64,000 bases of DNA from Setoptus koraiensis. Lineage: Eukaryota > Animalia > Arthropoda. The stretch is taken from NCBI GenBank assembly GCA_048013815.1, contig CM106586.1, forward strand, positions 868,001-932,000, given 5' to 3'. The position numbers were made by a program, and so were the translations under genes. Position 1 is the first letter of the stretch, and each line of letters opens with the position of its first letter. Below are positions 23,440 through 26,400 of the stretch, piece by piece. The notes beneath the pieces were generated by a model. It worked only from the letters and a program-made list of their open reading frames with translations, made no database searches and was not told where the DNA came from.

Positions 23440-26400
23440 GAAATATCTTATGAGGGCACGTATCCTAAGGCATCGATAGACATCAGAGTACTCCCCTCCA
23501 GTAGGGAAAGCGATATTATTCATATTGAACTGAGAATCCGAAAAATCCATGTAATGTGGAGGATTCATAGATTCTCGGACGATTGTGTGGCGTTCCCGAA
23601 GAGGGGTGTCCGGATTGGTATAACCAAAATAGGGTCCGACCTTATCCCTGATCATGTGCAATTTGACCAAAATAGTCAAAGGCATACGAGTAAATGGAGG
23701 AGGGTAATAATGCCCGTCCAGATAACCCTTAACAATGACCCGAAACCCATTGGTCAAATCGGGAATAGGGATTTCATTAGGTGCGTAGTATTTAGAGGTG
23801 CAATCCAGCCCAGGCCTAACACGGTCTACACGGGTGGCAAGAATGTTAACAGGTGCACCAAGAGATCGGTTGGCATAAGACCCGAGACTAGCAGAGTTCT
23901 TGGGGACCACGGAGGTACTACTGCCGGGATAATATGTCACACGTCGCAATCCAAAACTATCACGAGGAATAAACTAAATATCAGAAGAAAAATAAATAAG
24001 AAAGGAAGAAAAGATAAGTTGAGATTAATAAGTATGATGGATTTTTCAAATAGCAGGAACAATATACATGATAGAGGACATGTCATCCTCAAATTGTCTG
24101 AATGCGTTAGAAATCTTGCGCAAGAAGTTGAGCGGAGAAGATATACGAATACTCACTCCAATGTTAGCCTGGTGAGTGATGTTGGTAGGCAGTGCAGAAG
24201 GTCTAACACCTCTGGCAGGCATAGGAATAGGTGTTGTGACAGGAAAATTTTCGTCATTCGAGATGTCGGTGGGAACATAGGGCACCAGTGCCAAGCGATT
24301 TGGGTCCGGGGTACGGATAGGAGCACCATCAAAGCCGAGATTGTTGTCAATAGAATCGAAAATCTGGGCCATGTCCAATGGCGCATGACTGGAATTGACA
24401 GGAGTTTCGGCATCAGAACCATCAGACTCAGAACCAGAATCATTGTCAGAAGTATCACTACTGATGACAATTTCACCTGCCACGGAGTGCTGGACCAATT
24501 CGCCCTCATTTTCGGAAGGGCTGTCTTTTTCACTATCAGTGTCCGACCAAGAAGATTCAGAACTTGTGTCTTCAATGACTCTTTTTCTGAGCCTCTTGCT
24601 GATGATATCTTCAGGATCGGAATCAAGAACCGGACTAATATCCATGGTAGCGCGAATGGTGTAATTAACATCAGCAGCCACTGGAAGCGGGTCCAGAGGA
24701 ATAATAAAGTCCCTGGCAAAAAACGTGAGAAGATCCACAGAACTACGAGGCCAGATCCGAACAGTTACATCTGCATTAGATTGGTCACGAGGGATCTGGT
24801 CACGGATGGTCCGGTCATGGGCGACCCGGTCACGGTCAGATTGGTCATGGCCAGATTGGTCATGGTCAGATTGGTCATGGTCGCTCCGGTCATGATCCTG
24901 ATCATCTTGGTCCAACATATTGGAACTGTTAACATCAGGGGTAGACTCCCGAGAATCAATAACAAGAGAATCAGAGGAGGATCCGGGAGATGGTTGATTA
25001 GAATGGGTTCGTCCCTTTCCTCTTCCCTTCCCTTTCCCCTTTCCCTTCCCTTTGCCCGGTCCTTTGGCGGGCGACTGAGAGCCCTGTGGGGGAGGATGAC
25101 GTCTGGGAGACTTCCTACGATGGTCATCAGGTCGAGTTCCAGAAGAACCTCCGGCACCATTGCCGGAATCATCATCACCAGATGGAATAGGAGATGTGGA
25201 ATTGAGGTTCCTGACATGGGCCCGCAAGACCGTCATCGACTTGATAAAATCTGTAAGGTCAAAAGTCTCAGGTCCTGGATACTTGGTAGGAGGCTTGAGG
25301 GAAAGATTGGAATAAGACCAGCAGGGGTTCTTTGTGTCAGCCGTAACAAAGAAGGTGTGTCGAGCCTGGAACCGTCTCTTTGGGTAATTCTTAGTAGCTA
25401 CACCAGTAGAGAAATACCACTCGGCTTGCACATAACCGCTAACCAAATCCACTGCATTGCAGCCGGAGACTTCGGACATGCGAATTTTGCGGAGAGCCTT
25501 AAAAAATCTGGAGATCTCTACCAGCAACCATCCAAATATATTGGTTTCTTCCATGATCTTGTCATAAGCATCGTTGGTGATATTGCCAGACACGCCCATA
25601 TTGAGCTGCTGATGAGCATTCTTAAATTCACCAATTGGAGTCTGCTGATCCTGATAAAAATCTGGGTGTGTACCGTCAGAGGAGTACTTGAGTGCGGCCT
25701 CCAAAATCATGGGGTAATAAATATATCTCATGTACAAAAATTGGAAATTGGTAGCTATAAGCTCACCAGAATCATTATAAAGATTTCTGAGTGGAGCTGG
25801 TATCCCAAATTTTTCCTTGAAATCATCAGTATGAGTGATCCACTGGGCTCTGGCCTTCGCATTATTTGCATGCAATACATCGCCAACTTTCCTTTTTGCA
25901 GAAACAATAAATGGATTGTTCTCGAACGAGGCGGCATCAAATGGGTGACAACCCACGCCTCCAGCAGGAGGTACCTTTTTCCGGATACCACTATGATTGA
26001 CAGTATGATCCAAGGCTTTTGTATCAATTCTCTTATAAAAAGATTCGGGAAGAGATCGAAGTCCCAAATAGCACAACTCGGTATCCCAACATGGAACAAA
26101 TCCGGGAAACTCCAACATATCCTTATGTGTAAGTTTAGAACTGCCAGTCAACCTAGGCTTCCCACTAAACCTAGCAGCCTTAGGGTAAATATGATCAGCA
26201 GTGGCATCCTTGGGCAGCAAATAAGTATAGAACTCATCGAATACAACATCCTTATGTCGGGAAGCGTCAAATACTGTTGTCCCATCCTTGGGAACATAAA
26301 GAACTCGTATTTCCGAGGCCCTATGCACCGGGTTGCGCGCAAAGGGCAGCACATTGAGTGCACATCGGGAAACGGAACTAATTTTGGTGTCGGTAAAATC

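Follow-up and report, generated by a model that had tools for sequence, protein, structure and literature searches.

Antisense open reading frames within a continuous sense frame, and a candidate gene boundary between two of them, in a region resembling a non-LTR retrotransposon

Open reading frames of the two element regions

In two regions of the window, meaning the whole 64-kb stretch of DNA that was analyzed, both strands carry open frames whose codons line up with each other: one at 23.4-26.5 kb, and one from 54.7 kb up to where the window ends. In the first of these, ORF calling and matches to a paralog and to homologs defined ORF A, an antisense gene of 853 aa measured stop to stop (24046..26607, minus strand), which is made up of a conserved helical domain at approximately aa 140-465, a low-complexity basic/acidic region, and a 36-aa tail. 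The doubly open part of ORF A ends at 26526, and in-frame ATGs lie at 26577 and 26118. A second antisense ORF, ORF B (23422..23973, minus strand), lacks an in-frame ATG in its first 96 codons, and its 3' end enters a dispersed repeat, so its stop is probably foreign to it. An earlier, sequence-only reading of this DNA gave the two ORFs as 853 and 175 aa; the first size was confirmed, and ORF B was found to be 183 aa stop to stop, the smaller figure probably being a count from a later codon. The plus strand carries a codon-aligned open frame of 1,082 aa (23281..26529) that starts inside a repeat and, as had been claimed, contains no stop and includes NIRRKINKKGRKDKLRL across the segment between the two ORFs. 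This copy is a fragment lying between the repeats at 23208-23452 and 26621-27779. No endonuclease or reverse transcriptase (RT) follows it, and its likely tie to a retroelement is through homology to the paralog only.

The paralogous antisense ORF of 1,335 aa (54655..58662, minus strand) comprises an N-domain, a partial internal duplication, the ORF A domain, and a low-complexity tail, and ends in a repeat. Its identity to ORF A is 41.6% over 214 aa. Immediately ahead of it is a second tract resembling a 3' splice site (58663..58725, minus strand), where the previously reported AG at 58681, ATG at 58674, and in-frame TAA at 58663-58665 were all present; here the same kind of acceptor as that before ORF B stands directly before an ATG, and the minus-strand sequence upstream is non-coding. 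A candidate donor of a non-coding leader exon, AAA/GTAAGT (59189..59194, minus strand), lies 514 nt upstream of the 58681 acceptor.

On the plus strand of this region, a frame of at least 3,093 aa (54721..64000) is open and runs off the window end. It consists of a part that overlaps the antisense ORF, 446 codons lying over non-coding minus-strand sequence, and then a retrotransposon polyprotein. Across those 446 codons there are no stops in the plus frame, compared to 37 in the minus frame and 44 and 48 in the other plus frames. The polyprotein includes an AP-type (EEP) endonuclease that is cut by the window end (63517..64000, plus strand; PF14529, E=5.7e-05, 23.4 bits, below the 27.4 cut-off). 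A degenerate EEP-like region (62140..63510, plus strand) lies ahead of this intact endonuclease, with an Atlas feature score of 0.93 to EEP clusters, a PF14529 match at E=0.012, and a weak profile of its own. The EEP-like region is conserved in the protein P0003 and by eye may be two repeats, which would make three tandem EEP-like units.

P0003 (3,232 aa) was the sole match of the paralog endonuclease region. It carries an EEP domain (57.6 bits) and an RVT_1 domain, both above cut-off, and matches the L1 and R2 RTs and the TRAS1 endonuclease. The paralog plus frame is 42-43% identical to it at aa 1886-2100 and 2374-3087. In P0003 the RT follows the endonuclease, and the corresponding paralog region lies past the window end; by this alignment, the full paralog plus ORF would be approximately 4,700 aa or more. 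The search of longer proteins spanned 1,302-3,715 aa, a size range in which intact giant ORFs could not show up. P0003 has only about 460 aa ahead of the shared block, and these fail to align to the overlap region and do not appear to be antisense-derived, so dual coding is seen only in this window and genome.

Related copies are dispersed, comprising the paralog within the window and three diverged contig pieces in DNA run X1. The paralog also contains an internal in-frame duplication within its doubly open region (56372-56695 and 58175-58498; 324 nt, 92% alike). Neither a 2A-like nor a CCHC motif was found in the plus frames. A short dispersed repeat (26621-26760 and 54529-54668, 94% alike, inverted) adjoins opposite ends of the two element copies. 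Tandem repeats at 58764-59068 (123 nt) and 61458-61792 (144 nt) resemble each other in DNA sequence and leave the plus frame open, in different frames; they have an antisense-looking counterpart at aa 700-900 of P0003 and are possibly cis-acting DNA or RNA signals.

Selection on the minus peptides and the open plus frame

The codons TTA, CTA, and TCA were absent from the antisense genes, compared to 31.9, 5.7, and 36.6 expected (approximately 74 in 2,323 codons). When the domain shared by ORF A and the paralog was compared, the minus peptides were 43% identical and the plus peptides 25%, and nucleotide identity in the paralog comparison was lowest at minus third positions. Within the internal duplication, 14 of 24 changed codons were minus-synonymous and 6 of 24 were plus-synonymous. 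These comparisons indicate that selection acts on the minus peptides and that the plus frame is kept open despite this selection. It had also been proposed that the plus strand is the sense strand of the element, on the grounds that an antisense intron would persist in it. The strand assignment is supported, by the endonuclease and RT homology of the paralog rather than by the intron. The element looks like an APE-type non-LTR retrotransposon, judged by the EEP endonuclease in the paralog sense ORF, a domain absent from the 23-26 kb fragment. The termini of the element fall beyond the window or beneath repeats.

The shared domain had two remote homologs, P0001 and P0002, among 1.84 billion representatives, both of them Logan singletons. 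P0002 holds the ORF A domain and Asp-rich, basic, and acidic regions in one unbroken ORF of 1,766 aa, and it weakly matches the paralog N-domain (E=1e-5). A word-index search with the ORF A domain among proteins of 438-1,395 aa gave no further relative (0 of 5,221 candidates). Scans of metagenomes were negative for all 502 candidate stretches in one case and all 137 in another, and a viral scan was negative for 17 candidates; one 22% match among 12 candidates of another viral scan vanished on retesting. The antisense proteins had no match in Pfam, PHROG, PDB sequences, or Atlas, and Rfam likewise gave none. Their predicted folds were poor (mean pLDDT of 42 and 34) and gave no structural match (best Z of 4.8). 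The basic and acidic tails lead us to guess that these are nuclear proteins that bind nucleic acid or chromatin and could aid the element, for example against silencing. In the paralog N-domain (57163-57900, minus strand), which is common to P0002, the motif spacing recalls by eye that of Ulp1/C48 proteases; its predicted fold is poor. A resemblance of ORF B to the paralog N-domain, suggested by eye, was matched or exceeded by 181 of 500 shuffles and was rejected as not significant.

The 183-nt segment between ORF A and ORF B

The sequence-only reading held that the 183 nt at 23974-24156 are a minus-strand spliceosomal intron whose removal fuses ORF A to ORF B. Each sequence feature that it named is present: GGA/GTGAGT at 24156, a pyrimidine tract ending TTCTGATATTTAG at 23974, and a total length of 183 nt. 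The ends are consensus GT...AG in phase 0, and excision would take out exactly three minus-frame stops, the only ones in 23425-26607 (23974, 24025, and 24046), of which the one at 23974 is formed by the acceptor's own TAG. Across all 61 codons of the proposed intron the plus frame stays open (P=0.002, shuffling), as it does across the last 24 (P=0.04, shuffling). The joint of 23973 to 24157 was absent from the DNA run X1 contigs, among the 15 of 22 joints listed.

The first 108 nt of this segment (24049..24156, minus strand) appear to act as the final 36 codons of ORF A (VSIRISS...YIVPAI). A codon model for which the remaining 2,282 minus codons served as the training set gave them 11.1 bits, compared to a mean of 11.1 (sd 4.4) for minus-ORF windows that were scored in-sample. 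This score was rarely reached by shuffled sequences, whether these were kept open on the plus strand (P=0.0007 among 11,928) or on both strands (P=0.006 among 1,357), and ten windows from the non-coding minus stretch upstream of the paralog acceptor scored from -1 to -26. At the TGA of ORF A, GC drops from 0.39 to 0.22.

Substitutions were read from the three diverged genomic pieces assembled from DNA run X1, which are 83%, 87%, and 92% alike to the window. The first contig spans 24083-24205 with 16 differences in 123 nt, and the second, a fold-back contig, spans 24020-24112 with 7 differences in 93 nt; the differences listed are those away from contig ends, 10 of 23 for these two contigs, which is a small sample. 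Seven of those listed fall within the proposed intron, six of them at minus third positions (P=0.007). Among the changed codons listed in 24049-24156, 5 of 6 are synonymous on the minus strand (P=0.006) and 0 of 6 on the plus strand (P=0.15), the sixth being Ile to Phe on the minus strand. When the fold-back contig is left out, minus third positions account for 4 of 5 of the differences listed and minus-synonymous codons for 3 of 4. The three exonic differences listed beside the proposed intron are all minus-synonymous. Within a diverged copy, a two-letter codon change at 24142-24144 leaves both frames open where one of the letters alone would create a plus-strand stop; this is an anecdotal observation.

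Given this minus-frame coding signal, ORF A likely terminates in a C-terminus and a stop codon that belong to it. The 108 of the 183 nt likely are the C-terminus of ORF A, with a spacer-like part of only 72 nt, and ORF A most likely ends at its own TGA at 24046. The spacer (23974..24045, minus strand; 22% GC) contains two further minus stops, is open in the plus frame, and has no canonical poly(A) hexamer; it holds the pyrimidine tract and the 3' splice site (TAG) immediately before ORF B. The acceptor at 23974 has a pyrimidine fraction of 0.86 and an AG-free zone and is tied for the top of five minus-strand sites scoring at least 0.8 in the 64-kb window, and words resembling yTnAy are seen by eye approximately 50 and 12 nt upstream of it. 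In the paralog region the strongest acceptor-like site scores 0.78 and lies just ahead of the paralogous minus ORF. The two element regions together hold four acceptor-like sites of at least 0.72, and in each region the strongest one coincides, in phase 0, with the opening codons of an antisense ORF. By these features, the 23974 site is likely a real minus-strand 3' splice site.

The candidate phase-0 donor, GTGAGT (24151..24156, minus strand), which may be used optionally, is the single GTRAGT on the minus strand in 23400-26620, and it is in phase. This signal is less striking than the acceptor: six in-frame GT codons occur in the last 100 codons, and the chance that a GTRAGT falls in phase no more than about 300 nt from the acceptor is approximately 0.04; a second in-phase GTGAGT occurs at 55320, one in 2,282 other minus codons. 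It had been suggested that conservation of the intron position be sought in other copies. GTGAGT is unchanged in the one diverged copy (of one) that spans the donor, in which the eight codons around it (24145-24168) show no listed difference at 87% overall likeness, and the AG falls outside all of the diverged copies. The third copy covers 23440-23947 with 85 differences in 508 nt and departs into other sequence at 23947. Among the changed codons listed in ORF B, 7 of 15 are minus-synonymous and 4 of 15 plus-synonymous (P=0.17, not significant), and all five listed at 23896-23917, nearest the acceptor, are minus-synonymous. With no early ATG and a first part that looks constrained, ORF B needs a start from an upstream exon.

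As the best explanation, which we put forward tentatively and at somewhat less than an even chance, the 183 nt would be a gene boundary at which the coding end of ORF A and its stop are followed by the 72-nt spacer and by a 3' splice site that opens antisense gene B via another leader. Two points count against such a two-gene reading: the late first ATG of ORF B, for which the in-phase GTGAGT would supply an upstream exon, and the missing poly(A) hexamer in the spacer. The first of these gives weight to alternative splicing, which we regard as doubtful and yet a serious contender: unspliced RNA would encode ORF A with its 36-aa tail, and splicing from 24156 to 23974 would yield an A-B fusion, so that the intron would be real and optional. 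Splicing of this kind would account both for the coding signal in 24049-24156 and for the fact that ORF B has its first ATG so late, and it would make use of a donor that is the sole minus-strand GTRAGT of the region, in phase, and conserved in one diverged copy. However, coding constraint alone predicts that conservation, the in-phase GTGAGT at 55320 is another such case, the paralog acceptor has no coding exon upstream, and the GGA/ on the exon side fits poorly with the MAG/ that usually precedes a donor. The gene-boundary and alternative-splicing readings agree on the central finding, a coding tail that belongs to ORF A.

The remaining two readings are less favored. That no splicing occurs at all, the tract and AG being a by-product of plus-strand Lys/Arg codons or of terminator-like or spacer sequence and ORF B having its own start or being decayed, is unlikely; the 3' part of the paralog typically has a plus strand rich in A (AT skew of 0.17-0.3 at 59-64 kb), and five minus-strand sites of like strength exist in the window, but the strongest acceptor-like site of each element region lies in phase 0 where an antisense ORF opens. 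A constitutive intron joining ORFs A and B into one protein, as originally claimed, is very improbable. The GT...AG ends, phase 0, the loss of all three stops, and the donor kept in one diverged copy speak for it, but coding constraint in the host frame is present inside this putative U2 intron by two independent tests, substitutions and codon usage, and neither the minus-frame codon usage nor the synonymous bias is expected of sequence that is always removed. Such an intron would be tenable only if it was recently derived from coding sequence.

A possible ambigrammatic retrotransposon and its relation to known systems

Returning to the gene-boundary reading, the plus frame across the boundary likely stays open since it forms the beginning of a giant ORF of a non-LTR retrotransposon. 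We propose, with confidence that falls a little short of half, that the element is an ambigrammatic LINE: a single sense ORF of at least 4,700 codons, the first kilobases of which mirror a multigene antisense cassette that is spliced at an acceptor for each gene (with an optional A-B fusion), and in which ribosomes read the mirror text through to the endonuclease and RT. This proposal builds on the codon register and on substitutions favoring the minus protein, both of which are observed, and on continuity of the plus frame with an AP endonuclease, which is seen in the paralog only. The plus RNA would be the RNA of the element and the template for retrotransposition and would be translated through the mirror text of the cargo, so that TTA, CTA, and TCA would be purged. 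Such translation may deliver the endonuclease and RT in cis or keep the RNA covered by ribosomes. Splicing of an upstream leader onto each acceptor would divide the minus transcript of an integrated copy into mRNAs of one gene each; the leader would come either in cis, from a donor like the one at 59194 of the paralog, or by trans-splicing. In retrotransposition indicator cassettes, an antisense intron survives since the sense RNA is not spliced at such a site; by the same logic, the minus-strand splice signals here would survive copying because the plus RNA is unspliced there, and this would apply to both acceptors, whichever donor is used.

Ambigrammatic narnaviruses attain codon alignment of their two reading directions through loss of TTA, CTA, and TCA. 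The likeness to the present case is a long, codon-aligned reverse ORF, with the loss of these three codons measured here. Narnaviruses, however, are RNA viruses with an RdRp, whereas the sequence described here is genomic DNA among transposon repeats and linked to an EEP endonuclease; it would work alike without being a member of that group, and, unlike in narnaviruses, its "shadow" frame leads into the replication enzymes. Work on Culex narnavirus 1 reports a kilobase reverse ORF that is kept open and is required, with translation itself suggested to matter and ribosome-covered RNA proposed as the role of reverse-frame translation (PMC8316113).

An account of Drosophila TART, a non-LTR retrotransposon, describes antisense transcripts with consensus-ended spliceosomal introns, a likeness in that antisense splice signals occur in a non-LTR element; the TART antisense RNAs are described there as having no long ORF, whereas here kilobase antisense genes under selection lie inside an open sense frame (PMC1636488). 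Antisense additional ORFs are described for the LTR retrotransposons Grande (GENE23), RIRE2, and Retand (PMC7264820) and for Boty (brtn) (PMC8365987), which are alike in being retroelement-borne antisense genes with no function assigned in those texts. Most of these are located downstream of pol and ahead of the 3' LTR, whereas the genes described here are upstream of the endonuclease in the same frame as a non-LTR polyprotein; the word "overlap" is absent from the review (PMC7264820). In LINE-1, an APE-type LINE with an antisense promoter, the 5' part likewise carries an antisense ORF, ORF0, together with splice signals, but ORF0 is small, lies in the 5' UTR, and is dispensable, compared to genes of 850 to more than 1,300 codons with a continuous sense frame here (PMC10760644). 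The same source describes cis preference for L1 (PMC10760644). The order of EEP and then RT in P0003 is that of APE-type non-LTR polyproteins (L1 ORF2, TRAS1 endonuclease), from which P0003 (3,232 aa) and the paralog (4,700 aa or more by the alignment) differ in length and in the degenerate EEP-like region ahead of the intact EEP.

Antisense introns, antisense extra genes, ORF0, and ambigrammatic RNA viruses are thus each known. A prior description of the combination seen here, an ambigrammatic retroelement with antisense cargo, was not found in the open literature. If the proposal is correct, a retrotransposon can carry large genes without breaking the translation of its own RNA by writing them backwards and keeping the forward frame open, including through spacers and splice signals. 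Ambigrammatic coding would then be a property not of small RNA viruses alone but also of a mobile element in the nucleus, providing a second system in which selection on translation as such, and not on its product, could be tested, and a protein family without a Pfam, PHROG, or structure match would be exposed. It would also serve as a caution for sequence that is open on both strands: a GT...AG pair whose excision would "remove stops" may there mark the boundary of two genes.

The window as a whole is repeat-rich eukaryotic DNA, 55% of it covered by repeats found within the window, and contains a 500-N gap at 43133-43632. Arrays of a 157-nt satellite lie at 40558-40922, 43633-44078, and 45047-45774, one of which adjoins the gap. 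Remnants of other transposons include two minus-strand ORFs, one with a Tc1/mariner-like HTH (27758-28783) and one with FLYWCH and a MULE transposase (9627-10487). A further minus-strand ORF of Pro-Ala/Pro-Thr repeats (48765-49775), with an ATG after an equally strong minus acceptor at 49742, is probably a host exon.
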